DNA of 64,000 nt, taken from assembly GCA_000004695.1 (NCBI GenBank), contig CM000151.3, positions 6,848,001 through 6,912,000 on the forward strand, given 5' to 3'. Under the pieces are notes generated by a model. That model searched no databases. It saw only the letters and a program-made list of their open reading frames with translations, and had not been told where the DNA came from. The translations under genes and the position numbers were made by a program. Shown here piece by piece: positions 4,230-48,343 of this stretch. The stretch's first letter is position 1. Each line of letters starts with the position of its first letter. Origin of the DNA: Dictyostelium discoideum. Taxonomy: Eukaryota.

Positions 4230-4262
<33 letters not shown>

Positions 4263-4514
4263 GTACAAAAAAAAAATATAATTTCTTTTTATATTTGATG
4301 ATTGATATTTAGTAAAATAGTAAATAGATAACTTTTGATAATGATTTCACCTTTGGTCGATTTGTTCTAATCAAATATTGATGTTGGTTGTTGGGGGTGA
4401 TGGTTGAATTGTTACTTTTTGATAATTTATAAAATTTTATTATTACTATCGTTGTTACTTTCGCTGTTTTGATTTATAGTTATTTCTAACCTATTGTGTG
4501 TAATAAATATGTTC

Positions 4515-4547
<33 letters not shown>

Positions 4548-8690: not shown

Positions 8691-9573
8691 TTATACATTA
8701 TCAACAATTGAATTTCTAATATTATTAATAATGTTTGATGGTTTAGAGCCTTGAAGAGCAAAGATAGATTCAATGACAGAGATTTCAGTGGCAGTGGTAT
8801 CAGCACCAACGATGGCAGTCCAATCATTAACTACACAACCAGCGGCAACACATTCATTACCACGATTGACGGTACCAGCGACTAAAGGAACTTGAAGGAG
8901 TGATGATAACTCATCTTGATCGGCGATTGAGGTCATTGGATGAACGAGAGCACCTTGATTTGTGAGAGCACAATAGGTACCAACTAAAACATTACCAGAG
9001 ACGGTTTGTCTGAAAACTTCAACACCTAAAACATCTGCAATGATCTCTTCGGTCTCTCTATCGATATCTGGGTGTACCAATGCAACATAATCATTTGTGG
9101 CGATACAGTTACCCAATGCTGAGAATTTCTCTTCAATTCTTTGTACTACGACATCATCTGGTAATGAGTTTCTAATTTGTTGTAATTCTTGATCGGTACA
9201 TGTATTTGGTAATAATAAACCATTCTTATTTCCTGCTGATAAACGACCAACAATACGTGTACCTGCAATACTTGTCTCTACAACTGGAATATGATCTGCT
9301 AATCTATTCTCTACTGTATGTAAAAATTGTTTACTTCCACATTGTCCAACAAGACAATATTTATTTGTTAATTTTAAAAAAACACCAACATCGCAACTGT
9401 TTTCATATTGTAATCCTATATAAAAAATAATAATAATAAATTAAAAAAAAAAAAATTTATTATATTAATTTTTTATTTTTTATTTTTTATTTTTTATTTT
9501 TTTATTTTTTTACTTGTATTATTATTTTTATTTTTTTATATAAAAGAAGAAAAAAAAACATACTTGTAGCCAT
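8691..9573 (-). CDS. eif6: Eukaryotic translation initiation factor 6 (eIF6). Two exons: 9564..9573 (MAT plus one base) and 8691..9415.
   Basis: Spliced product is [73 protein letters not shown]...[32 protein letters not shown]...[30 protein letters not shown]. It is collinear with eIF6 along the whole length. The 10-nt first exon is followed by a GTATGT donor. Confidence 0.92.
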
Positions 9574-10135
9574 TATTATTTATATATATTTATTTTAGAA
9601 GGGGTGGGTTTTTGACTTTGTTTTTTTTGTAAAAGAAGATGGGTGTGGGGTGAGTTATTTGTTTTTGGTTGGGAGATATTTAAAACCTAAATGTTTTTTT
9701 TTTTTTTATATAGATAGGTCTTTTCAAAATGTTTACAATTCAATTTTTAAAAAATTTAAATGAAAAAAAAAAAAAAAAAAAAATAAAACTAAAAAAAAAA
9801 AAGAATAAAAAAACGATAAAAAAAAAATTTATTTTTTTTTTATTTTTTTTTCATTTTTTTTTTTTTATGTGCGAGGACTAAAACGAAAGTTGAGAAAATT
9901 ATGAAAAAAAATATTTTTATCATTTTTTTCTTTTTTTTTTTTTTTTTATAATTATTAAAAAATACCATAAATTTATTAATTAATTATTGTTAAAGCTTTA
10001 TACTTTATTTTTTTAAATAATTAATTGGAGTTGGGCCGCTCTTATCATAATAATTATGGACACAAATGATTCTATCATTACCTTGACATCTTAGGTATAT
10101 TAAAATAATCAATCTGATAAGTTGCTAATTACCCT

Positions 10136-10196
<61 letters not shown>

Positions 10197-10276
10197 CAAT
10201 TTTTTGTTTATCAAAAATTTAAAAATATCCAAAACTAAAAAGACTATCCTCCCTCAAACCGGCAATAATATTTTAA

Positions 10277-10309
<33 letters not shown>

Positions 10310-10405
10310 TAATAAGAATAATAAATAATAATAAAATTAATAATAAAAATAATAATAATAAGAATTTCAAAAAATAAAAAATTAAAAAAAAAAAATAGTT
10401 AAAAT

Positions 10406-10438
<33 letters not shown>

Positions 10439-10702
10439 GTTTAGACTAATAATAAATATTGTTATTGTTTTTGTTATTTGTGAATTTGTTTTTTATGATG
10501 TTTAAGTATTTGGCAAATATTAATTTATTTGTTATTTATTAATTTATTTGTTTTTTTTTTTTTTTTTTTGTTTATTAAAATAAGATTATTTATGTATAGA
10601 AAAAAAAAAAAAAAAAAAAAATCTTAAGATTTATTTATTTTTTTTGATTTAGATTAAAAAAAAATATAGAATATTAATTCTTTATGATATAAATTTAATA
10701 CT

Positions 10703-10736
<34 letters not shown>

Positions 10737-11168
10737 TATTAAAAAAAAAAAAAAAATTTAAATATTTCCTTAATCAAACTCAATTTAATAGTTAATGATA
10801 ATTAAAAAATAAATAAATAAAAAGTTATTTTTAAATAACATCAACAAAAATAAAAAAATTTACCATATTTTAAATATATAATTATATTTTGTAAAATCAG
10901 TACATCCAAAAATTTTCATAGTTTTACATCTTTTTTTTAAAAGAGGCCCCTGGATTTTAGATTAATTGGTTAAATTTTATTTGCTTTTAAAAAATTATTT
11001 ACAAATCCTTTTTTTTTTTTTTTTGTCAAAATATATTTTAAAATATTTTTTTTTTTTTTTTGTTTTTGTTATAATACGAAAATAAGATAAAAATAAAATA
11101 AAAAAAACAATAGTACGTCCTTTAAACAAGTACAAGTAAAATAAAATTTTTAATTTTTTTATGGTTTG

Positions 11169-11199
<31 letters not shown>

Positions 11200-11752
11200 A
11201 ATATTAATTTATTAAATTTATATGTAAATAAATTAAATTTTATTATGTTTTTTTTTTTTTTTTAAAAAATTTTAAATAAAAAACTTAAAATAAAAATGAA
11301 AAGCAGTTAACAACAAGCATAATTTACCATTTTATTTTATAATGATAATTTTTTAAAAAATCTTTAATTTTATTTATTATTGTTATTTTAAACCAAGTGT
11401 ACCTAATCTTTTAAAATTAAAAAAAAAAAACACAAAAATAGCAAATTTAACTCTACAAATAATATACTTGATTTTAGAATAAAAATGTATTGGATCATCG
11501 ACTTATCTTTATTTTTAAATATATTTTTTTTTTTTAAATTTGAAAATAATTTTATGGTATGTATTTTGGTTTTAAAATTTAATGTGTTGGAGTGGGTGTT
11601 TACCTTTTTCACGAGTTTTAAAATGGTAGTTTTTATACACACACACACATATAAAATAGGGTCTTAATAAATATTTACTATTTTGATTTGATCAAAATTT
11701 TATTATATACAATTATTATTTTATTTTTTTAATTGTTTTTTTTAATTGTTTG

Positions 11753-11787
<35 letters not shown>

Positions 11788-11908
11788 CTATAAATAAAAA
11801 AAAAATTTGATGTTTTAAATTAATTAAAAATAAATAAAATTCAAAACAACTAAAAAAAAAAAAAAATCGACTTTAATAAATAAAAAAAAAAAAATCAAAA
11901 TTTATAAA

Positions 11909-12224
11909 ATGTTATCAAGTATGAATCATGAAATTTTAAAAAAAAAATGTGATAATTTCAAATATAGTTATTAATTATCCAATTTTATTATTATTTTTTT
12001 TTTTTTTCCATTTCTTTTTTTTCCACCTTTTTTTTTTCTTTTCCCTTCTTTTTCTTATTTTTCTTTTTTTTGTAGAATCATTATCATCATTTTTCTCAAT
12101 TAAATCCAATCCATCAGTTTCTAATACAATTATTAGTAAATGCAATGAAACTAATACTCATTCTTTTAGTATTAATTCCATTTCTATGAAACAAAGCTTT
12201 TTTTCAAGACCTTTATACTTCTAA
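11909..12224 (+). CDS. Candidate micro-gene A, a 52-aa peptide (MLSK SLSSFFSIKSNPSVSNTIISKCNETNTHSFSINSISMKQSFFSRPLYF). Exons 11909..11918 and 12076..12224.
   Basis: A 10-nt first exon (ATGTTATCAA) followed by GTATGA, then a (T)nGTAG acceptor and an open frame to TAA. A paralogous structure sits at 14336..14576. Confidence 0.25.
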
Positions 12225-12534
12225 TTTTCTTTATTATCACAATTTTTTAATGTCCAAAAAGATTTTGTTTTTCCCCCAAATCCTTTATCATTTGCCTCAT
12301 TTTCTCAAATTTTCTTATTTATAATTCTGATTCTTTATTCCTAATATTTTAATTTAATAAACAAACCGATCATTTTTTCCAAACCTTTTTTATTTATTTT
12401 TCTAATTTTTTTTTTTTTTAATTATTTTTCTTACTTTTTATAATATTGTATTTTATATTTAAGTTTATTTGTATAATAAATTTTATTAGTATTATTTAAA
12501 TATAACTTACTTAAAGTTAGTCGTTTTTAAAATT

Positions 12535-12600
12535 TATTTTTATTATTTTTTTGGTATATTTTTTGGTATATTTTTTGGTATGTTTTTGGTAAATTTTTGG
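12535..12600. repeat. Minisatellite (TTTTGGTATAT)n, about 5 units.
   Basis: Direct tandem repeats visible in the sequence. Confidence 0.8.
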
Positions 12601-12823
12601 TTTATTTTAAGTATATTTTTAGTTTATTATTTTAAAGAATCAAGAACTTTAATATAATAATAATTCAATTTTATAATTTATTAAAATTAACTTTATAAAA
12701 AAGTTTGCAATTAACTTTTAGAAAAAAAGAAAAAAACAACTACATACCTTTGAAAAATAAAATTTGGCAATCAAAAAATTAATAATTTAAAATACCTACA
12801 GAATTAGTTTTATAAAAAAAACT

Positions 12824-12854
<31 letters not shown>

Positions 12855-12861
12855 ATGGCAG

Positions 12862-12913
<52 letters not shown>

Positions 12914-14335
12914 AAAAGAAGAAAAAAAGAAAATTAAAATTGAAAAATAGAAAGAATATGTTAAAGCATATTAAATGCTATTGGAATAATTTTTTAAGAT
13001 GTTATCATAAAATATAAACTGGGAAGACTTAGAAATTAAAATTAGGTTTAAAGGAAACCCAAAAAATAATAAAAAAAAAAATTAAAAATGAAATAAAAAA
13101 AAAAAAAAAAAAAAAAAGAGAAAGAGAAAGAAAGGGAGAGAGCTGTTTTTAGGGAGGTTTCCCCATTAATTAATTTTTTTTTAAAAAAATTATAAAAATA
13201 TGATTAAAGAGTTATAGTTAAAGAAATATTAAAAAAATATAATTTAAAAAGTGATCAGAATCAAAAATAAAAATTATTTATACTCCAAAAAAAAAAAATA
13301 AAAAAAAAAAAAATAAAAAATAAAAATAAATTAAATATTCACTCTACAAATATTATAACCACTATTTTTTTTTTAAATAATATTTCAATACCTTTTTATA
13401 ACAAGTATTAATATATTCAAACTTTTTTTTAAAAATGGAGATAAATCTTTTATCATTTATCAAAAAATAATTAATGGGTTTTTTTTTTTTTTTTTAATTT
13501 TCACTTCTTTTAGAGTGGTTTTAATATTGTTTTGGTCATTAATTTTAAATAATTTTTTTATAAAAATTTTTTATTTATCTAATTTTTGATTTTTTTTTTT
13601 TTTTTTTTTTTTTAACCTACTTTTTTATTAGTATATTTTTTTTTTTTTTTTCTAACTTTTTTAATTTTAACTACTTGTAGTTTTATTATCAAATAATAAT
13701 AATAATAAAATAATTATAGTTAGAGGTTTTAAATAAAAAATAAAATAGAATTAAATAAAAAATATTATTTTTAAAAATAAGCTTTTTAATTTTAAAAAAA
13801 AAAATTTTTAAGTTTGTATTAAATAAAATCGAAATTTTAAATTCAATGTTTTCCACCATTTTTAAAATTATTATTTTTTATTTGGTATATTAAAACAATA
13901 AATAACTGATTTTTTATACTCTTTTATTAAGTTTATAATTTAAAGTTTATTCATTTCTACCTTAAAAATTAAATTTCTTTAAAATTCTTTTTATTTTTTG
14001 CAAAAAAAGTAATAATTAATATTGAAACCTAGAACATTGACAAAAAAAAATAATTAAAAGGATTAATGAAAATTAAATCAAATTTATAGTTATCTTGAAG
14101 CATCTATACGAAATACATTAGATATTTGCACGTGGCCTATTGTTTTGTTATTGTCTTTTTCTTTTTTTTTTTTTTTTTTGATTAAAATGAAATAAATAAA
14201 TAATGAAATTGGGTAATAAAATGAGGAAAATGAAATAACTTAATTTATATTTTCACAATAATTATTTTTTGTTAAAAAAAAAAATTAATTAATTAAATCA
14301 ATTAACTTATATATATATTTATATATAAATATATT

Positions 14336-14576
14336 ATGATTTCAAGTATGTACATTTTTTATAAATTATTTAATATTCTTTAAATATTAATTTTATTTTA
14401 CCATAGACTCTTTAATAATTATGGCTAATAATAACCCAATTTCTCCCAAATCAATTTTGGTTTCATGTAAAGATGAAAATAATTTTAACACTAATAATTT
14501 TTTTTCTATTGAACAAATAACGTTGTTTAGTAGAACAAGAATATTTTTTTCAAGACCTAATTTCTTTTCTTTCTAA
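14336..14576 (+). CDS. Candidate micro-gene B, a 59-aa peptide (MISN SLIIMANNNPISPKSILVSCKDENNFNTNNFFSIEQITLFSRTRIFFSRPNFFSF). Exons 14336..14345 and 14407..14576.
   Basis: Same architecture as micro-gene A: a 10-nt first exon (ATGATTTCAA) plus a GTATGT donor, with an intron in the same phase. The peptides share NP.S, S.C.EN, FSI and FFSRP motifs. Confidence 0.25.
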
Positions 14577-15204
14577 AAAAAAAAAAAAAAAAAAAAAAAG
14601 GTTAGAAATTCTAACCCACTAATATCAAGAATAAAAAAAATATATTTATGTATACAAAAATTTGATTTATTTTTTTTTTAATATTTTTTTTATATATTTT
14701 TTTTTTTTAATTATTAGGTTATACCTTTTGATTAGTGAATTACTGGTTTTTATAGTGGTCGGTTGGTTTTTGGTTTTGAATGTTTATGGGAGGTTTGATT
14801 GGTTTTCAGTTTTACTTTTTTTTGGGTTATTATTTGATTTTTTTTTTTCAAATGTTGTGGTTTGATTAGTTTGTTTGGTTGATGTGGGGTGATAATTGAA
14901 AACTGACCCTATGATTTTTTTGCTTTTTAGTTGATAGGGGTGAATGATGCTCTTTTTAGGGTGAGATGTGGGGTCATATTAATTCATTACTTTGACCAAG
15001 TTTCAATTTTTTTTTTTTTAAAAATAAAGAAAAAAAAATAAATCAAATAAAAAAAACTGTAATTATTTAGGTAAATTAGTCAAAGAAGACTGTTTTTGGA
15101 AGTTCTGATTCTACAATCCAAGCTTAATGTAAATTTTCTTATTTAATTACAATTTGTAAAATTAAATTAAGAATTTTCGTTATATTTTAATAAAGAGCCA
15201 GTTG

Positions 15205-15217
15205 GGGATTCGAACCT
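15205..15217 (-). promoter_or_regulatory. Extra B box (ex-B, GGTTCGAATCCCC) about 30-40 nt downstream of the tRNA-Lys gene.
   Basis: The minus strand reads GGTTCGAATCCCC, matching the RNA pol III B-box consensus GGTTCGANTCC. Dictyostelium tRNA genes commonly carry such ex-B boxes downstream. Confidence 0.5.
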
Positions 15218-15247
15218 TTGATCCACTTGTCATGATCTAAAAAATTT

Positions 15248-15320
15248 CGCCCAAAGGGGGGCTCGAACCCCCGACCACAAGGTTAAAAGCCTTGCGCTCT
15301 ACCGACTGAGCTATCTGGGC
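15248..15320 (-). tRNA. tRNA-Lys (anticodon UUU), 73 nt.
   Basis: Minus strand reads GCCCAGATAGCTCAGTCGGTAGAGCGCAAGGCTTTTAACCTTGTGGTCGGGGGTTCGAGCCCCCCTTTGGGCG. It folds as a cloverleaf: a 7-bp acceptor stem with one G-U pair, a D-arm (GCTC/GAGC), an anticodon loop CTTTTAA, and a T-arm (GGGGG TTCGAGC CCCCC). The A box (TAGCTCAGTCGG) and B box (GGTTCGAGCCC) are present. Confidence 0.9.
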
Positions 15321-15368
15321 TTTTTTGAAAATTTCATCTTTAGTACAAAATAAGGTAGATTTAATAAG

Positions 15369-16213
15369 TGGGAAGAGGAACTCAAAAACAACAACAACAA
15401 CAAAACAACAACAACAAAACAAAATCAACTACAACTACACTGGCAATGCGAGCAAGCATGGACCCAATTAAAAACTCCACAAAATAAACAAACACACTAC
15501 GAACACCTCCCAAAATTAAAAAAAATATACGAGGATATGATGACAACCCAATCTCCAGAACACAACAAATTCATACCAACTCCTGGCCAAAAAGAAATAA
15601 TGACCAAAATTAATAGCAAACACCTTCTATTTAAAGAAATCAAAAAAATAATAAACATGAAAGGTAGAGATCTATTATGGAGATACACACTGAAAGCACT
15701 ACCAAAAATATACAACATGCCATGCCAACAGTGTGGGGAAGATGAGACTTCAGAACATATATTCTTCAACTGCAAAGCCCACATCAAAAACACACAAGAA
15801 ATCTTCAACTACACCCTAACTAAGTGTGGACACACCACTCACACCTGGAATGTGAAGATTTTAAACCATCTACAAATCGCACTAGTAGCCAATTTAATAG
15901 CTATTATATTCGAAAAAATCTGGCACAAAAGAAATAAACTCATTCACGATGAAAAAGAAATAATAATTCACAGACAACAAGTCATACGTGAACTAATTAA
16001 AACACAAAGAGCTGCATGGGACAGGACACAAGCGGTTATAAACAAAACATTAAGAATCAAATCAAAGCAACGGCCAGAAGAACAAAATAAATTAGACTCA
16101 CTAATCTCGCTAAAGCTATTACAATTTAGCAGACAATGGAACTCACCTCTTCACGCAATAGAACTTCCTAAACATCTCAAAAAATACAATAATTCACTCA
16201 GTACCTTCTCTAA

Positions 16214-16268
<55 letters not shown>
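15369..16268 (+). mobile_element. 5'-truncated TRE5-type (tRNA-gene-targeted) non-LTR retrotransposon fragment. It carries the C-terminal part of ORF2 and a poly(A) tail, and starts about 48 bp upstream of the tRNA-Lys 5' end.
   Basis: ORF 15537..16217 encodes a Cys/His-rich tail (CQQCGEDETSEHIFFNCKAHIKNTQ ... CGHTTHTWNVKILNHL) typical of LINE ORF2 C-termini. It is followed directly by A50 at 16218..16268. The position relative to the tRNA 5' end fits the known TRE5 targeting distance. The exact 5' boundary is inferred. Confidence 0.55.
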
Positions 16269-16272
<4 letters not shown>

Positions 16273-16594
16273 GGAACCCAAGTTAATCAGAAAATTTCCA
16301 GATTTTTAACTTTTTAAAGAAAAATACAAAAAATAGAAAGAAAATAAAATGAAAATCACAAACAACACCACAAATATTAAGCAACACAAATGCCTACAAA
16401 AAATAAGCGAAATTGTGGATAAAACTCAATTAAAAAAAAAACAATTCAAATACGTCATAAACATCAATCACGAACCAGACGATAAAATAAAAAAAGATTT
16501 AGAAAAAAGTTTGGACAAAAAAGATGTTTTAATCAAAAGTAATAATAGAAGTTGCTTAATATTAAAATTAAATCTACCTTATTTTGTATAGAAA

Positions 16595-16632
<38 letters not shown>
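16269..16632 (+). mobile_element. Second retroelement 3'-end fragment: a short ORF (MKITNNTTNIKQHKCLQK...) ending in a second poly(A) tract at 16593..16632.
   Basis: An independent A40 tail 360 bp after the first, giving a nested or tandem arrangement. Identity with a named family is not established. Confidence 0.35.
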
Positions 16633-16634
<2 letters not shown>

Positions 16635-17100
16635 TAAACCAACCCCTCTTTTAGAGACCCTGTAAAAAAAAAAATAAAATAAAATGAGATCTAGCATCTC
16701 AAGGAGAAGCAAATAATAATTGCGTTATCCAATTCAAAAAAAAAAAAGTTGATTTAATTTTATGAAAAAACCTAAAGTATTATTAAAAATTGTTTAATCC
16801 GTTATTCCATTCAAAAAAAAAAATTAAAAATTGTTTAAAATAAATTCTAAAAAAAACCTCCACTAACCTTCTAATTTTAGGCCATGTAAAAATCCAATAA
16901 ATAAGATGATTTTTTTTGAATAGGATGAAGAAATTGATATAAATTAAATGAGAACAAGTATCTTAAGTAGAAGCAAACTGCTTTTGCGATATCTAATTCA
17001 AAAAAAGTTGAAAACTTAATTCTAAAGGGATAAAAGGTATATCTATTTGAATAGTTTAAGGTGTAAAAAATCACTTTTCGAAATAATATTAAAATTAATT
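16633..17100. repeat. Block of imperfect direct repeats (units resembling GAGA.C.AG.ATCT.AAG.AGAAGCAAA...TGCG.TATCCAATTCAAAAAAA), probably a further transposon-end fragment.
   Basis: At least three copies of a roughly 60-bp motif within 450 bp, seen by eye. Confidence 0.35.
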
Positions 17101-17511
17101 TTATTTATTTATTATTTAAATTTTATATTAAATTTTGGAGTATATAAACAATAGTATATTCTATTTGAAGACTTATTTAATAAATGAAAAAGAAGGAAGT
17201 ACCTGTAATTAGGTAATGGATGATCTATATAATAGGTTTTTCTTTTCTTTTCTTTGCATTTACTAAAATTGGTATAATTGTTATATTTCTGTAGAATCTT
17301 GGAGATAATTGATGATTGTAATAAATATTATCAAAATTACATTTTTTTTTTCATTATCCAGAATTTTTTAGAATATATTATTAAATAACCCTTTGAAATG
17401 AGGTATATATATTTTTTCATTTTCATAATCTTGATTATTATTATTACAATTATTATTTATTATTATTATCATTTTAGGTTGTTGTTATTTTATTTATGTT
17501 GTTGAAGTTGG

Positions 17512-17566
<55 letters not shown>

Positions 17567-17569
<3 letters not shown>

Positions 17570-18037
17570 ATCCATCGAAAATAATTTAAAACCGGTCCAA
17601 ATTAGAGTTGGAACAAGAAAAATGAAAATTGTAATAAATTCACTATTTAAATTTTTTTTGAAAATAAAATGTTCAGAACCATGATAACAACAACCAATAA
17701 TATTTAAAACAAAAGTAATTTGTACCATTGGTTTTAAATGTGTGTTATATGAAGTTAAGACTGTAATGTAAGATCCAAAAATAACCCAATATAATAAAAT
17801 TCTTTTATAAAGACTTTGAGCTGGAAAAAAAAAAAAAAAAAAAAAATTAGTTGATTTTTTTATATGTTACTTTTTTAGGAAAAAAAAAAAAAAAAATCAC
17901 ATACCCTCTTTTTCACCATTAAAATGAATTTTATGGATCAAGTAATCATTCCTAAAGAAAATCATGATGAACAACATAAATCTGCAAATTCCAGATAAAA
18001 ATAAATAATAAGAGTAATAATCTATTTCTGGCTCCAT
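17567..18037 (-). CDS. Small multipass membrane protein, 128 aa, hypothetical. Exons 17905..18037 and 17567..17820.
   Basis: Spliced product is MEPEIDYYSYYLFLSGICRFMLFIMIFFRNDYLIHKIHFNGEKE|AQSLYKRILLYWVIFGSYITVLTSYNTHLKPMVQITFVLNIIGCCYHGSEHFIFKKNLNSEFITIFIFLVPTLIWTGFKLFSMD. It has 3-4 hydrophobic helices. Donor GTATGT, acceptor CCAG, phase consistent. I cannot assign a family. Confidence 0.5.
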
Positions 18038-18852: not shown

Positions 18853-19296
18853 TAAAAAAAGGCTGAAAAAAAAAAAAATAATAGAATCATTCCCACACAA
18901 AAACCAAACACACATAAATAGAAATTTTTCTATTTATAACATTCTGTTGTCATTATTATTATTAATAAGTAATAATTAAACTTGTATTTATGTAATTTAA
19001 ATAATAAAAAAAATCAAAAAAAATAAAATAAAAATAAATATCAAAAAAATAAAATAAAAAAAAAAAATAAAAAAAATAAAAATAAAAAATAAAAATAAAA
19101 AAAATCAAAAAATAAAAATTAAAAATAGAAACAAAAAAAAAAAAAAAAATAATAATAATAAACAATAATTTTTACACATATAAAAATATATAGTCTTACA
19201 AAAGTAGATAGATAAATAAATAGATTAAGTAAATTTAATATAATAAAATAAAAATATAAAATAAAAATAAAAATAAAAAATAAATATATATAATTT

Positions 19297-43920: not shown

Positions 43921-45904
43921 ATTCGTTAAACCCATCATAATAAACTATTTTTTAGTAATATAGCATTAAGTGCGTTTTATTTATTTTAGTATTTTTTATT
44001 GAGTTAGAGGAATCAAAAATTATTATTATATTACTATTATTATTTTAAGTCAATAGTTTTTTAATTTAATTTTATTATAAATCTACAAATCTATATTTCA
44101 TCAATTAATTGGACATTATTCAATACAAATAAAAAAAATAAATGACAACATATATGAACTAAAAATAGAATTTTTTTTTTATATAAACACACCGATCCAA
44201 AAAAAGTGTGGTTAAAATTTAATAACAATATCTAGATTTAAATTTTTTTTTTTTTTTTTTTTTTTATATGTATACTAAAATAAATAAAAAACAAATATAT
44301 ATAAAAGAAATAATTATTTTTATAAATGACGATCATTTATTTTTTATTTGTTATTTATGTCAGTAAAAAATGTTTTGAGAGAAATTTTTTTTTTTTTTTT
44401 TTTATACATACTAACCAAACTTTAAATCAGATTCTACATAAACTAATGTTATAAAAAAAAAAAAAAAAAACAAAAATGAAAAGATATTGGATTTAAATAA
44501 CTGCGAAATAGATTTAAATCAATGAAGTTTTAATAATATCCAAGACCAAACATATGCATAAAAAAAAAATTAAAAAAAAAAAAAAAAAAAAAAAAATTAT
44601 TAAAAATTTATTATTATTTTATTCCAGCTTGTATTTAATTTCCAAGGCAAGAGAATAAAATTTCTATTAATATTCATTAATTTTTTTTTATTTTTTTAAA
44701 GATTTATTAAGAAATACTAAATACTTTATAATGGTTTAATTATTATTTTATTTTTTTTTTTTTTTTTGATTTCATTTTTGATCATGTGATCCAATGAATC
44801 AATATAAAAAAAAATAAAAAAAAAAAAAAATAAAATATTTTAATAAAAATAAAATATTTTGGTTAGTGGTGGGTGTTGATATCAACATTTTACTTTTTAA
44901 AAATCAAAAACCTATTTTTAATGTCAATTGCAACATTAACTAATTACAAATTCTTTCATTAATTCCGAATATTATTAAATATTTTCTTTGAAAACAAAAA
45001 AAAAAAAAGAATAAAAAAACAAAGAGTATTTTATAAAATTGTTTTACATATTTTATATTTTAGTTTTTTTTTTTTTATTTAATTTTTTTTTTTTTTTATT
45101 TTATTTTTATATAGTTTTATTTAATAATTTACGAAAACATATTCTCTTCATTTTAAAATATAAATAATGATATATAGTAAGTTGTAGAAAAAAAAAAAAA
45201 AAAAAAATGAAATTAATAAAAAATATTTTGTTATTTATTTATTAACAATTATTTAATTTAAATTATTTCAGAATCAATGGTTTTTAAATATTATAAATGT
45301 GAATCATGTAATTCAAATCATATAGAATCAGGTTCATCTCATTCAATAAATTATTGTTTGGATTTAAATTCAAGTAAAATTTATAGAAATCTAACATGTA
45401 CATCATTTTTTACTCGCCCAATTTTCCAATCTTTTTAAATATTAGGTCAACACTGAATTTCTTGAAAAAAAAAAAACAAATAAAATAAAAAATCCATCAA
45501 ATGAAAAAACAATTGAACATATATTCCGAAATCAAAATAAGATTAAAAAATTTCAAATTGTTAGATTTTATTTATATTTTTTAAAAAATATTAAAACAAA
45601 CAATTAATAAATTATTTTCATTTTATTTTGCTATTAAAAAAATCATTTATTTCTAAAATTGTTTTTTGAGAAATTAGAATTAAAAAAAAAAAAAGAAAAA
45701 CCCCACAAACAAAAATAATAAAATTAATTCTGGTTAGTCGACACATAATGAAAATAAAACTAATTCTGGTGAGTCAACATTTTGAAAATAAAATTAATTT
45801 ATTTTTAATAAAAAAAAGATTTTTCAATTCTTTTTTTTCTTCATTATTCAAGACGAAAATTGACCATCTTCATCAAAAAAAAAAAATTTAATTTAATTTT
45901 TTTT

Positions 45905-46440
45905 TTGGTAGTGAATGGGGCATAAGATCAGTGAATTTATTTGATTTTCATTTAAAATATCATCCTGAAAGAATACAAACCTATATTAGAGCAGCATTTG
46001 GCTCAATCTTCCTATATTATCATCCAAAATTTATTATTAAGGTTTTAAAATTTTTAGAAGAGTCTATCAATCATAATAAACCATTTACTTTAACTATAAG
46101 TGAAAGAAATTATTTCATTATTAAATATTTAGATAGTTATAAATATAATGAAGAATTGTTTTAAAATGATATTGAATAATCCGATATCACCAACTTCAAT
46201 ATTTCGAAATATCCAAATTTTTAAGAAATTTTCAAGTGTAGATACAAGAATGGGTGTATATAGTTATTTAACTTATAAAAAATTACTCCCTTTTGGATTT
46301 AATAGTATTCGAACATCATTTTATTACCGTAATGAAAGTTCATACGAACCTAAATTAACTTTCTAAAAACAATAATAAAGTATAAAAATAAAACAATAAA
46401 TTATATACACAAATATTAAAAAATTCTTTTGGTAATAAAA
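45905..46440 (+). pseudogene. Truncated, frame-disrupted copy of the 5' part of the 1615-aa gene at 49934..54781 (equivalent to about residues 90-245), fused directly to a copy of that gene's 3' flank.
   Basis: It splits into two frame-shifted ORFs: 45931..46164 (LFDFHLKYHPE.IQT...HPK.IIKVL.F..ESINHNKP.TLT..ERNYFI) and 46148..46366 (NPISPTSIF.N.....LPFGFN.I.TSF). These are about 80% identical at nucleotide level to 50270..50720. The end at 46350..46440 (CTAAATTAACTTTCTAAAAA.AATAA..TATAAAAATAAAACAATA) matches 54850..54905 downstream of the intact gene. Confidence 0.6.
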
Positions 46441-46914
46441 AGGTTATTTAATAATTTTTTTTATTTTTTTTTATTTATTATTTTTATCATTTTATTATTT
46501 AATTAAATGGATGTGAATTGAATGTTTTTTTTTTTTTTTTATTGGTGCATGAGAGAAAAAAAAAAAAAAAAATTAAAATAAAAAAATAAAAATAAAAACA
46601 TGGGTGTTTTGAGATATTATTAAATTTGATTTTTTTTTTTTTTTTTTTTTAATTTTTTTATTTTTTTTATTTTTAATAAATAAACTTTGTTTTTAAATGG
46701 TTGAATAATAGAAATAGAAATTGATTTAAAAAAACTAATTAAAATCATATCTTTTTTGTATTTATTTATATTTTTTTTTTTTTTTTTTAATTTCCAAGGA
46801 TTTAATTATTAATTTATTTTAATTTCCATTTAGTATGGATAAACAGAAAACTCAAAAATATACAAAATGATATAGAATTTTAAAAAAATAAAAATAATCA
46901 TTCTTTTTTATAAT

Positions 46915-46954
<40 letters not shown>

Positions 46955-47351
46955 ATAAAAAAGTTTATTTTTAGAATTTAATTATTTATCATTCAATTTT
47001 TTGTAAAAATATTTAGTGTGTTGGTTTTAACATTTTTTATAATTTTATATTATTTTGTTATATTTCTGTTTTATATTATATTATTTTTATTTTTTAATTA
47101 GCTATTTATGAAACAAATTCTTCATTTCAATTATTCAAATTTTAAATATAATTATATTTATATATTATAAGCATATTGAAATTAATAGATATGAAAAAAA
47201 TTATTGTGAATAACATATATTTTTTTCTTTTACTATTTTTTTAAAATAAAATATATCACGAATCGTGTAATCCATCATAAAATCAGATTCATCTCATTCA
47301 ATAAATATTTTTTGAATCTAAATTCAATTAAAATCATAGAAATCAAACATA

Positions 47352-47387
<36 letters not shown>

Positions 47388-48050
47388 AAATTAAATAAAA
47401 TAATAAAATATATAATCAATCTATTATTCATTTTTAAAATTTCAAATGGTTATAAATTATTAAAAATATTTTTTAAATAAACTCTAGCAACCAATCTTTT
47501 AAATATTTAATTAAATTATTTTCAACCAGTGTTTAAATTTTTTTTTTTATAATTTATTTCTCATCCCATAGGAATCTAATCTATTACTATTTTTACTATT
47601 TTTATTTGATCCATTTATTAAAACACATATATTATATATATATAAATTATTTTTTATTTTTTATTTTAATTTTTTAACTATAAAATGTAATCAAAAAAAA
47701 AATTAATTAAAATAAAAACCAAAAACTGTCTTAAACAAAGCTATAAAAAATGATATTTAGTAAGGTTTTTTTTTTTATAAAATTGTTTTTTTTAATAGGT
47801 TTATTAACAAACTATTTTTCTTTTAGAAAATTTAATTTCAATATCATTAAAATCAAATTCGTCTCAAAATGGAATTAATAAAAAAGAAATGTCTTCAACA
47901 TCTCAGTCTCAAAATTTATCATTAAAATCAAATGGAATTTTATATTATAGACCACATTTTAATAATTATTAAGTTATAAAAAATTAATTCCATGATTTGT
48001 TTACCAACTATCTCAAGGGAGAATTAAATGAAATTTAATTTGTTCAGAAG

Positions 48051-48083
<33 letters not shown>

Positions 48084-48152
48084 AAAAAAAAATCCAATCG
48101 ATCAATTTTACATTTTAGTTTAAGATAAATTTAATTTTATTTAAAATTTAAG

Positions 48153-48195
<43 letters not shown>

Positions 48196-48343
48196 ATTAA
48201 AAAAACGTTTTTGTTTAATAAAAATAAAATTTAAAAACTGATTAACAAAAAATTTTTTTTTTTTTTAAATTTTAATTTTTTTTAATTTTTTTTAATCCGA
48301 TTTTTTCAGATATTTTTTTTTTTTTATTTTTATTTTTTTTTTT

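Follow-up and report, generated by a model that had tools for sequence, protein, structure and literature searches.

The stretch of DNA analysed here (the window) comprises 64,000 nt of Dictyostelium discoideum AX4 chromosome 2 (chr2:6,848,001-6,912,000; the offset of 6,848,000 was fixed by three genes). Two small genes, designated gene 1 and gene 2, lie 2.4 kb apart on its forward strand and are predicted to encode peptides of 52 and 59 amino acids, respectively. Coordinates of these genes, of their flanking signals and of related features are listed in Table 1. The first-pass annotation had given the coordinates and translations of both gene models exactly. It had also described a first exon of 10 nt; this length is correct, and it applies only to the coding part of exon 1.

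Table 1. Genes, signals and transcript models in the window (window positions)
Feature	Position	Strand	Remarks
Gene 1	11909-12225	+	predicted spliced product of 52 aa, MLSKSLSSFFSIKSNPSVSNTIISKCNETNTHSFSINSISMKQSFFSRPLYF, then stop
Gene 1, exon 1, coding part	11909-11918	+	ATGTTATCAA; M, L, S and first base of codon 4
Gene 1, intron	11919-12075	+	phase 1; donor GTATGA, acceptor TTGTAG
Gene 1, exon 2 including TAA stop	12076-12225	+	open in 9/9 genomes
TATAAATA box upstream of gene 1	11789-11796	+	read in sequence
AATAAA, 3' side of gene 1	12356-12361	+	probable polyadenylation signal
Gene 2	14336-14576	+	predicted spliced product of 59 aa, MISNSLIIMANNNPISPKSILVSCKDENNFNTNNFFSIEQITLFSRTRIFFSRPNFFSF, then stop
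Gene 2, exon 1, coding part	14336-14345	+	ATGATTTCAA
Gene 2, intron	14346-14406	+	phase 1; 59-67 nt across genomes; AG acceptor
Gene 2, exon 2 including TAA stop	14407-14576	+	open in 9/9 genomes
lncRNA model CUFF_1676_1 / DDB_G3973735	11199-12820 (chr2:6859199-6860820)	+	RNA-seq; contains gene 1
lncRNA model CUFF_1677_1 / DDB_G3972125	13812-14504 (chr2:6861812-6862504)	-	antisense to 5' half of gene 2 (PMC5295588, Files S4 and S6)
Third member, DDB_G0276499	45167-45438	+	exon 1 coding 45167-45176; intron 45177-45271; exon 2 45272-45438
Fourth member, unannotated	47750-47972	+	exon 1 coding 47750-47759; intron 47760-47826; exon 2 47827-47972

Two split micro-genes and their surroundings

The 10-nt coding exon of gene 1 is invariant in all nine genomes of the orthologue alignment, where it is followed by GTATG(A/G). 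Donor and acceptor of the intron are invariant as well, and its length ranges from 134 to 174 nt. Since the length differences between genomes are not multiples of three, the intron is non-coding. For the same reason, longer proteins that would arise by read-through of the pyrimidine tract or by use of an ATATAG acceptor at 11967 were rejected. The intron consists of a conserved 5' part that extends up to TTATTAAT (11968-11975), a pyrimidine tract of variable length and the terminal TTGTAG; TTATTAAT may serve as a branch-point-like element. In exon 2, the sole indel among the nine genomes is an insertion of 3 nt in D. citrinum.

Upstream of gene 1, the TATAAATA box is situated in an island of conservation (0.89 identical columns versus a regional mean of 0.38), and CTATAAAT is kept in every genome whose sequence reaches that part of the alignment. 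If transcription starts about 30 nt downstream of the box, the ATG of gene 1 would be the first ATG of the transcript. On the opposite side, TTTAATTTAATAAA is kept in most genomes at the point where the semi-conserved 3' flank of the gene ends, and the AATAAA found there probably represents the polyadenylation signal of gene 1.

Gene 2 is organized in the same way. Its ATG, the length of 10 nt and the GTATGT donor are kept in 9/9 genomes, the coding part of exon 1 reading ATGATATCCA, ATGATATTTG and ATGATATTTA in more distant species. The same ATG was picked independently by the gene caller applied to assembly GCA_054883475.1. A branch-point-like TATTAAT is present in the intron, and the indels observed in exon 2 across genomes (+3, -12 and net -3) are all in frame. 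The C-terminal part of the product, LFSRTRIFFSRPNFFSF, is nearly invariant with mostly synonymous changes at the nucleotide level, and the N-terminal half is fast-evolving.

Published RNA-seq data indicate that the locus of gene 1 is transcribed on the sense strand. The corresponding stranded model, CUFF_1676_1 (DDB_G3973735), was classed as lncRNA by Rosengarten et al. 2016 (PMC5295588, Files S4 and S6); it is single-exon, starts 700 nt upstream of the gene 1 ATG and contains upstream ATGs. Model and gene thus share locus and strand, but the former is regarded as a non-coding transcript of one exon, whereas gene 1 is a predicted ORF with an intron, and selection on it is purifying. It is possible that an upstream transcript and the gene 1 mRNA were joined in this model. 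In the case of gene 2, the only published transcript model that touches it is located on the opposite strand (PMC5295588).

The spacer harbouring both genes had been taken for otherwise featureless intergenic DNA. This description has to be abandoned, as conserved islands, the two published lncRNA models, a tRNA gene and retrotransposon remains are found there. Some spacer blocks devoid of ORFs, for example 11335-11514, are conserved as well or better; no RNA-structure signal was found in this particular island (z=+1.28). A search of Rfam over positions 9300-17500 returned tRNA-Lys only.

Frame conservation and absence from annotation

The comparison covered five species (D. discoideum, D. cf. 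discoideum, D. citrinum, D. dimigraforme and D. firmibasis), represented by nine genomes. Both genes are intact in 9/9 genomes with respect to ATG, 10-nt coding exon, GTATG donor, AG acceptor, reading frame and stop codon, so that conservation in related dictyostelids, on which the original proposal had been made to depend, is established. All exon indels of the two genes are multiples of three; the introns differ by non-multiples, and the flanks accumulate about 35 gap openings per kb.

Substitutions display the same coding signature. For gene 1, dN/dS is 0.09-0.31 (Fisher P=9e-5 for AX4 versus D. citrinum) and variable sites are distributed 7/6/18 over the three codon positions (third position 18/31, P=0.004); for gene 2, dN/dS against AX4 is 0.3-0.5, with mostly synonymous changes within the invariant C-terminal peptide, and a single comparison, D. 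citrinum versus D. firmibasis, yields 1.9; these selection statistics rest on tens of substitutions because divergence is modest (dS ≤0.35 for gene 1). In the four-species alignment, the fraction of identical columns is 0.73-0.89 for gene 1 exon 2 and 0.78-0.84 for the C-terminus of gene 2, compared with the regional mean given above.

As a control, the interval from eIF6 to position 14790 was scanned for stop-to-stop ORFs of 40 aa or more, and the 34 found were scored in six other genomes. No ORF lying clear of both genes is intact in more than 1/6 of them; the four ORFs that exceed this count each overlap one of the two genes. By comparison, exon 2 of gene 1 is intact in 6/6 and gene 2 in 5/6 or 6/6 of these genomes, depending on whether global or local alignment is used. 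Antisense ORFs over both exons were also considered and discarded, as they contain stops or frame shifts in other genomes. Taken together, the data support conservation of the two genes across five Dictyostelium species, with purifying selection acting on both.

Neither gene has an exact match or a word-sharing protein in protein databases, although neighbouring AX4 proteins are present. Annotation status in AX4 was judged from such protein look-ups and from the flanking genes listed by Rosengarten et al., the nearest of which are eIF6 and erg28 (PMC5295588). In eight other assemblies, the annotation pipelines left both loci without a gene call, one 310-aa fusion excepted.

A probable family of at least four genes in the window

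The note that first described the two genes had proposed a family, and two further copies were identified in the window by means of the micro-exon signature. The pattern ATG-N7-GTATG occurs at 6 sites in 128 kb (both strands), compared with 1.4 expected. Its relaxed form, ATG-N7-GTA[AT]G, is found at 8 sites in the window, and 4/8 lead in phase into ORFs ending with RP.[FYW]. Such an ending within 11 residues of the stop is displayed by only 4/1294 window ORFs, all of them reached from ATG-N7-GTA[AT]G sites.

All four genes share a coding first exon of ATG plus 7 nt; a GTA[AT]G donor follows, and codon 4 is interrupted by an intron in phase 1. Their introns measure about 60-170 nt and their second exons about 150-170 nt, and the products have 51-59 aa. 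The products begin with M-[LI]-x-[KN]-[SN]-[LM], and at the C-terminus they have a common tail, [FY][FY]-x-R-P-x-[FY], that lies no more than about 10 residues from the stop. This tail, defined after the members were seen, is present in only these 4/1294 window ORFs; a stricter version of it, applied to 13 further loci, matched only orthologues of family members.

The third member, DDB_G0276499, encodes 58 aa with N-terminus MIYKSM and C-terminus SFFTRPIFQSF, and its spliced translation is identical to XP_643121.1 (Q551P9). It resembles genes 1 and 2 in window, strand, 10-nt coding first exon, phase-1 intron and size, its donor being GTAAGT, but its similarity to them is not significant (z 1.9-2.4). 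Four cysteines including a CxxC motif distinguish it from the other three products, and it alone of the four genes is annotated. No paper mentioning DDB_G0276499 was found. Its orthologues are intact in the loci L011-L013. The fourth member, a 51-aa product ending with ILYYRPHFNNY, is absent from the protein collection searched; it is intact in L011 and L012 and deleted in D. cf. discoideum (L013). Gene 4 is thus dispensable in one lineage. For pairs other than genes 1/2, z-scores are 0.7-2.4 and overall similarity is not significant; membership of genes 3 and 4 is therefore proposed on the basis of architecture and short terminal motifs.

The short coding first exon is not family-specific by itself, because the neighbouring eIF6 gene (DDB_G0276493) has the same layout at its start: ATG plus 7 nt precede GTATGT (ATGGCTACAA|GTATGT), and the gene codes for an unrelated protein of 244 aa. 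As eIF6 shows, this is a common layout of Dictyostelium genes.

Genes 1 and 2 were compared in more than one way. BLASTP of the two peptides gives E=0.012; when tblastn is run within the window with composition adjustment, the E values are 0.34 and 4.9. Smith-Waterman scores are 56-61, against 29+-6 for shuffled exon-2 peptides; the real score is reached by 4/5000 shuffles of exon 2 and by 1/3000 of the full-length peptides, and the full-length pairwise z-score is 5.3. All-against-all comparison of ORFs by raw score is of no help in this window, whose sequence is of low complexity (poly-N/K/F) and where two of every three small ORFs have a partner scoring at least 56. Taken alone, the peptide similarity is marginal. 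Alignment of the orthologue profiles with hhalign results in P=3.4e-4 and a probability of 38% over the C-terminal 21 columns. The two genes also have in common the beginnings MLSKSL and MISNSL and an identical 15-nt TTTTTTTCAAGACCT. No nucleotide-level duplication and no similarity beyond these 15 nt were detected in the DNA alignment of the two loci. Because ATG-N7-GTATG is rare, the profiles match with the above P value and two further look-alike genes exist in the window, the resemblance is very probably not due to chance.

The shared motif initially derived from the two peptides, NP.S...S.C.EN...FSI...FFSRP, holds in its second part only. FSI...FFSRP is conserved among orthologues, but C is replaced by Y or S and NP by NS or NQ. 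Outside the motif, the N-terminal M[LI]S.SL is conserved among orthologues of both genes.

Relatives outside the window were searched for with little success. No Pfam family matches the peptides with E<0.07, a metagenome scan with the gene 1 profile found no match, and synteny does not extend to the eIF6 locus of D. purpureum, which lacks a family member. Profile search of 1.84 billion protein representatives returned two repeat-driven artefacts only (staphylococcal protein A repeats and a repetitive ORF) and did not retrieve even DDB_G0276499. It is thus understandable that the family had not been recognised at first sight: its only catalogued relative is this uncharacterised hypothetical protein, with no Pfam family and no homologue outside. 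As far as sampled, the family is restricted to the D. discoideum species group.

Probable coding function, rival readings and possible roles of the peptides

Judging from the sequence comparisons, genes 1 and 2 are very probably unannotated spliced protein-coding micro-genes, most likely tandem paralogues, and members of a small family that, as far as sampled, is confined to the D. discoideum group. The earlier idea of a paralogous micro-gene family is supported by the presence of at least four members in the window and by conservation and purifying selection of both genes. The opposite view, that they are chance ORFs in AT-rich intergenic DNA whose similarity and micro-exons are coincidences picked by eye, would be in accord with the weak pairwise E values, with the abundance of small ORFs in the spacer (the 34 controls) and their high raw partner scores, and with exon GC content of only 22-23%. 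It has already been refuted by the comparative data and retains next to no probability: all nine genomes preserve reading frame, splice sites and stop, control ORFs clear of the genes are broken, dN/dS is below 1 with an excess of third-position changes, and coincidence of pattern and motif in four genes would arise by chance with a probability of about 1e-9. It is also hardly probable that the loci are functional non-coding elements, such as lncRNA exons or regulatory DNA, conserved at the nucleotide level with incidental ORFs. Such elements would explain the catalogued lncRNA around gene 1, the antisense model overlapping gene 2, the conserved ORF-free blocks and the C-terminal 110 nt of gene 2, which are without any substitution among the six closest genomes. 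They would not explain the codon-structured substitutions, including synonymous CCT/CCC/CCA, TTC/TTT and ATA/ATT exchanges in an invariant peptide, nor why every exon indel is in frame. Moreover, the middle of gene 2 has only about 50% identity in D. citrinum and D. firmibasis and is still open and in phase with micro-exon and C-terminus, and Rfam has no match at either gene.

Two further alternatives accept the ORFs as genuine. According to one of them, translation itself, for instance ribosome stalling at the Arg-Pro tail close to the stop, regulates the transcript or a downstream gene in cis, and the free peptide would have no role of its own. It would fit that R-P is conserved in all four genes at a distance of 3-6 residues from the stop, and that DDB_G0276557 follows the end of gene 4 after 400 nt in the same orientation. 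On the other hand, genes 1 and 2 are followed by no same-strand ORF, the lineage that lost gene 4 still has DDB_G0276557, the spacing between RP and stop is not constant, and N-terminus and FSI block are conserved too; we consider this very unlikely. The other regards both genes as real but not paralogous, with termini that resemble each other by convergence or chance. The modest hhalign probability, the limitation of similarity to the two ends (about 6 residues at the N-terminus and about 21 at the C-terminus) and the lack of DNA similarity outside TTTTTTTCAAGACCT are what would be expected in that case. Against it stand the common strand and proximity, the identical position and phase of the intron within codon 4 together with the common terminal motifs, the fact that the parts shared by genes 1 and 2 are the most conserved parts within each orthologue group, and the two further genes with the same combination. 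Independent origin of the two genes is therefore quite improbable, and tandem paralogy remains our preferred reading.

All four peptides are basic (net charge +2 to +5), rich in Ser, Asn, Ile and Phe, and predicted to be without confident structure; AlphaFold2 run on single sequence was uninformative (pLDDT 55, no usable model). A crude hydropathy test, with maximal Kyte-Doolittle means over 15 residues of 0.46-0.68, reveals no hydrophobic N-terminal or transmembrane stretch in any of them, which speaks against the secreted or signal peptides envisaged originally, although export by an unconventional route may occur. Precursors of secreted signalling peptides have nevertheless some points in their favour. 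The products are small and lineage-specific with a fast-evolving middle and a conserved terminal peptide, as in many precursors of peptide signals, and Dictyostelium uses unconventionally secreted peptide signals, AcbA being processed to SDF-2. However, in addition to the missing hydrophobic region, genes 1 and 2 have no conserved cysteine pairs, their single cysteine is not conserved and no dibasic processing sites adjoin the conserved tail, so that this role has little probability.

It is possible, and we propose it tentatively, that the peptides are intracellular and largely disordered and act through their tail. The conserved aromatic Arg-Pro C-terminus would be a short docking motif on a conserved partner, with the variable middle as spacer. 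An HbYX-type proteasome-docking tail would fit gene 1 (LYF before the stop) and not the other three, and a presequence-like N-terminus of mitochondrial type may be present in genes 1 and 4 only. A bolder and rather unlikely proposition is that the genes represent a Dictyostelium-specific family of ~6-kDa peptides, partly in "lncRNA" loci, in which the FFxRPxF tail constitutes a new functional module. The tail would then represent the bioactive end of developmental signals that leave the cell unconventionally or, alternatively, a docking/arrest motif controlling a conserved cellular machine, and many more genes with a split start of this type would be unannotated in the genome.

The micro-genes are reminiscent of micropeptides encoded in transcripts annotated as lncRNA, which likewise have ORFs of less than 100 codons, are overlooked by annotation and are found by frame conservation. 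They differ in that an intron interrupts the coding sequence behind its first 10 nt, in forming a local multi-copy family and in lacking a transmembrane helix, a feature of many characterised micropeptides. The present case illustrates that micro-genes interrupted only 10 nt into their coding sequence are missed by ORF-length filters as well as by ab initio callers, and genomes of sibling species make them detectable through frame conservation. In AX4, a curated model genome, 3/4 family members are missing from the protein set, one of them residing in a published lncRNA locus. A genome-wide census could use ATG-N7-GTAWG followed by a short ORF ending with [FY][FY]xRPx[FY] as search signature, and coding potential of the 621 published lncRNA models deserves comparative re-check (PMC5295588). 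The four genes are small targets for knock-out. Trypsin cleavage of the gene 1 product would be expected to release SLSSFFSIK, CNETNTHSFSINSISMK and QSFFSRPLYF, and that of the gene 2 product DENNFNTNNFFSIEQITLFSR and IFFSRPNFFSF.

Structure and conservation of genes 1 and 2

The two micro-genes studied here, gene 1 and gene 2, occupy a spacer of ~5.7 kb, unusual in its length, that separates eIF6 from a tRNA-Lys gene; the window has a GC content of 13-30%. Coordinates on chr2 were converted with an offset of 6,848,000, fixed by three gene coordinates in the supplementary data of Rosengarten et al. 2016 (PMC5295588), which place the window at AX4 chr2:6,848,001-6,912,000. The protein encoded at the eIF6 locus matches D. 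discoideum eIF6 with 100% identity. Positions of genes and transcript models are listed in the table; the first-pass description of both micro-genes agrees with the window sequence.

Positions of genes, exons and transcript models in the window
Feature	Window position	Strand	Remark
eIF6 (DDB_G0276493)	8691-9573	-	chr2 6856691-6857573; PMC5295588
lncRNA model CUFF_1676_1 / DDB_G3973735	11199-12820	+	chr2:6859199-6860820; PMC5295588
Gene 1 first exon, coding part	11909-11918	+	ATGTTATCAA; sequence
Gene 1 intron	11919-12075	+	GTATGA... to ...TTGTAG; sequence
Gene 1 exon 2	12076-12225	+	spliced product 52 aa
lncRNA model CUFF_1677_1 / DDB_G3972125	13812-14504	-	chr2:6861812-6862504; PMC5295588
Gene 2 first exon, coding part	14336-14345	+	ATGATTTCAA; sequence
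Gene 2 intron	14346-14406	+	sequence
Gene 2 exon 2	14407-14576	+	spliced product 59 aa
tRNA-Lys(UUU)	15248-15320	-	
erg28 (DDB_G0276497)	17567-18037	-	chr2 6865567-6866037; PMC5295588
DDB_G0276419	23013-23507	-	chr2 6871013-6871507; PMC5295588
Gene 3	45167-45176 joined to 45272-45438	+	MIYKSMVFKYYKCESCNSNHIESGSSHSINYCLDLNSSKIYRNLTCTSFFTRPIFQSF; micro-exon signature
Gene 4	47750-47759 joined to 47827-47972	+	MIFKNLISISLKSNSSQNGINKKEMSSTSQSQNLSLKSNGILYYRPHFNNY; micro-exon signature

On their own, the two peptides resemble each other only marginally. The BLASTP E-value is 0.012; in tblastn inside the window they are reciprocal best non-self matches, only a few bits above noise, and with composition correction this similarity is not significant. 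Composition-preserving shuffles reached the observed Smith-Waterman score in 4/5000 cases for the exon-2 peptides and in 1/3000 for the full-length ones, and two-thirds of small ORFs in this low-complexity window have a partner with a raw score at least as high as that of the pair. No DNA-level duplication was found between the two loci. Since the neighbouring eIF6 gene likewise opens with a 10-nt coding exon (9563-9573, minus strand; ATGGCTACAA followed by GTATGT), the layout of 10-nt exon and GTATG is not unique to genes 1 and 2. The window alone is thus compatible with either outcome.

Using eIF6 as anchor, syntenic regions were fetched from other assemblies: a near-identical D. discoideum strain (L001/L004), three D. 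discoideum or cf. discoideum lineages with ~10% intergenic divergence (L002, L003, L005), a further D. cf. discoideum (L010), D. citrinum (L009), D. dimigraforme (L008) and D. firmibasis (L006). Syntenic orthologues of both peptides occur in every compared assembly except D. purpureum (L007), where the eIF6 region is not syntenic and no syntenic orthologue of either was found. Conservation in related dictyostelids, whose absence would have counted against the initial proposal, was seen in 9/9 genomes: in each, both genes retain the ATG, a first exon whose coding part is exactly 10 nt long, GTATG donor, AG acceptor, phase, an uninterrupted frame and an identical stop codon.

No exon indel disturbs the frame: D. 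citrinum carries +3 in gene 1 and -12 in gene 2, L002 has +3 in gene 2, and D. firmibasis -9/+6, also in gene 2; all are multiples of three. The gene 1 intron ranges from 134 to 174 nt, with length differences not divisible by three, and gap openings in the flanks number ~35 per kb. Gene 1 has a dN/dS of 0.09-0.31, AX4 and D. citrinum differ by 9 synonymous and 4 non-synonymous changes (Fisher P=9e-5), and variable sites at codon positions 1/2/3 number 7/6/18 (P=0.004). The N-terminal half of gene 2 diverges fast with its frame still open; at the C-terminus, LFSRTRIFFSRPNFFSF hardly varies, and changes within it are mostly synonymous (CCT/CCC/CCA, TTC/TTT, ATA/ATT). As control, every stop-to-stop ORF of 40 aa or more in the spacer (34 in total) was projected onto six other genomes. 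Those clear of genes 1 and 2 are intact in at most one of the six, and the four with higher counts each overlap gene 1 or gene 2. Exon 2 of gene 1 is intact in 6/6 genomes, gene 2 in 5/6 in global and 6/6 in local alignment. In an alignment of AX4 with D. firmibasis, D. dimigraforme and D. citrinum (mean identical-column fraction 0.38), islands of 0.73-0.89 coincide with gene 1 (TATA box, start, 5' part of intron, exon 2) and with the 3' end of gene 2. Based on kept structure, in-frame indels, codon substitution pattern, broken control ORFs and conservation islands, we conclude that genes 1 and 2 are real genes whose reading frames are under purifying selection.

Relationship between genes 1 and 2 and further family members

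Genes 1 and 2 share strand and intron position (codon 4, phase 1), are spaced by 2.4 kb and contain an identical 15-nt stretch, TTTTTTTCAAGACCT. When profiles of their orthologues were compared by hhalign, the C-terminal 21 columns (FSIxxI..FFSRPx[YF]F) aligned with P=3.4e-4 and probability 38%. Of the shared motif originally proposed, the FSI/FFSRP part is conserved among orthologues; NP and Cys are not. The parts common to both genes are exactly those most conserved inside each. Origin by tandem duplication is likely, and we hold it with considerable confidence.

The base rate of the micro-exon was gauged by counting ATG-N7-GTA[AT]G on both strands of the window. Only 8 sites were found; one is the eIF6 start, two belong to genes 1 and 2, and two more, both on the plus strand, begin the same kind of gene (genes 3 and 4). 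The suggestion of a gene family holds. Gene 3 peptide is identical, residue for residue, to AX4 "hypothetical protein" DDB_G0276499 (XP_643121.1, Q551P9); curators thus accept such architecture at least once. Gene 4 peptide is not in the protein collection searched. All four peptides start with M-[LI]-x-[KN]-[SN]-[LM] and end, few residues short of the stop, with [FY][FY]-x-R-P-x-[FY]. Among 1294 window ORFs (at least 25 aa), RP.[FYW] within 11 residues of the stop occurs in exactly four, genes 1-4, and in 13 further loci the stricter tail motif matches only orthologues of family members. Since micro-exon pattern and tail motif were found independently, the fourfold in-phase coincidence is not due to chance. 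Upstream of the acceptor, all four introns also carry an element similar to TATTAA[CT], which resembles the branch site UACUAAC of yeast; that of gene 1 lies ~100 nt upstream of the AG and precedes a long pyrimidine tract whose length varies.

Two other D. discoideum assemblies (L011, L012) have both gene 3 and gene 4 intact. In D. cf. discoideum (L013), gene 3 is intact and gene 4 is missing via a 2.5-kb deletion. The region 45765-48253 is structurally variable: the segment that includes gene 4 is absent in D. cf. discoideum, and the two other D. discoideum assemblies possess an extra gene of ~1100 aa, related to DDB_G0276559, of which AX4 retains only a 450-nt fragment (45899-46352).

Annotation and transcription

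Peptides of genes 1 and 2 are absent from a collection of 15 billion proteins, none of which has even three 5-mers in common with either; a profile search of 1.84 billion representatives returned repeat artefacts only. AX4 neighbours pdhB, DDB_G0276557, DDB_G0276559 and DDB_G0276499 are all present in the collection. Annotation pipelines of newer assemblies call no gene at either locus with one exception, GCA_054883475.1, where a 310-aa model starts at gene 2's own ATG and continues into the retrotransposon ORF at 15537-16217.

Annotated genes eIF6 and erg28 flank two intergenic lncRNA models (Rosengarten et al., PMC5295588). Since DDB_G3973735 spans the whole of gene 1 on the matching strand, the gene 1 locus is transcribed on this strand and catalogued as non-coding, an example of "lncRNA" with conserved coding frame. 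On the opposite strand, DDB_G3972125 overlaps the 5' half of gene 2 (start, intron, first 98 nt of exon 2), which may reflect sense/antisense regulation or strand mis-assignment; no sense-strand model for gene 2 is found among those of Rosengarten et al. Two further published models in the window, DDB_G3974463 and DDB_G3969903, span 4242-4536 (+) and 18871-19142 (-).

A conserved non-coding island (11335-11514) is located 400-570 nt upstream of gene 1, within DDB_G3973735; 11050-11154 and 11615-11700 are similarly conserved. Identical columns in the island reach 0.78-0.96 (same four species) against the regional mean of 0.38, exceeding conservation of gene 1 itself. It contains no ORF kept across species, no Rfam match and no RNA-structure signal (z=+1.28). 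ATCGACTT occurs in it and again 40 nt ahead of the ATG of gene 1. Either a regulatory element or a transcript of its own could account for the island.

Possible function and genomic surroundings

The family peptides measure 51-59 aa and are basic, with a net charge of +2 to +5; Ser, Asn, Ile and Phe are abundant in them. Pfam gave no match, structure prediction nothing confident, and no relatives were found in metagenomes (scanned with the gene 1 profile) or literature. None contains a hydrophobic stretch fit for a signal peptide or membrane span; the secreted signal peptide suggested at first, that is, a classical secreted precursor, is thus not supported, while unconventional secretion is possible. 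A role in cis as leader ORFs is unlikely: genes 1 and 2 are not followed by a main ORF, and gene 4 was lost separately, without its downstream neighbour. Conserved termini and variable middle, extreme in gene 2, fit a short linear motif carried on a disordered peptide. Our best guess, a tentative one, is an intracellular micro-protein that would dock via its aromatic Arg-Pro tail. Genes 1, 2 and 4 are new, unannotated members of a micro-protein family that is lineage-restricted and uncharacterised and has DDB_G0276499 as its only catalogued member; as a set they are useful to genome curation; on present evidence they do not constitute a new kind of biological system.

Downstream of gene 2, G+T-rich DNA (14640-15150) lies on one side of tRNA-Lys(UUU) and a retrotransposon ORF fragment (15537-16217, plus strand; weak zf-RVT match) on the other. 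Only in the near-identical strain does the G+T-rich DNA align over its full length; alignment with more diverged genomes is poor or absent. In D. firmibasis this tRNA-Lys is found ~120 nt past the gene 2 stop. The ORF fragment has the appearance of a TRE-type non-LTR element's 3' end, and the arrangement at 14640-16300 is typical of tRNA-targeted retrotransposition.
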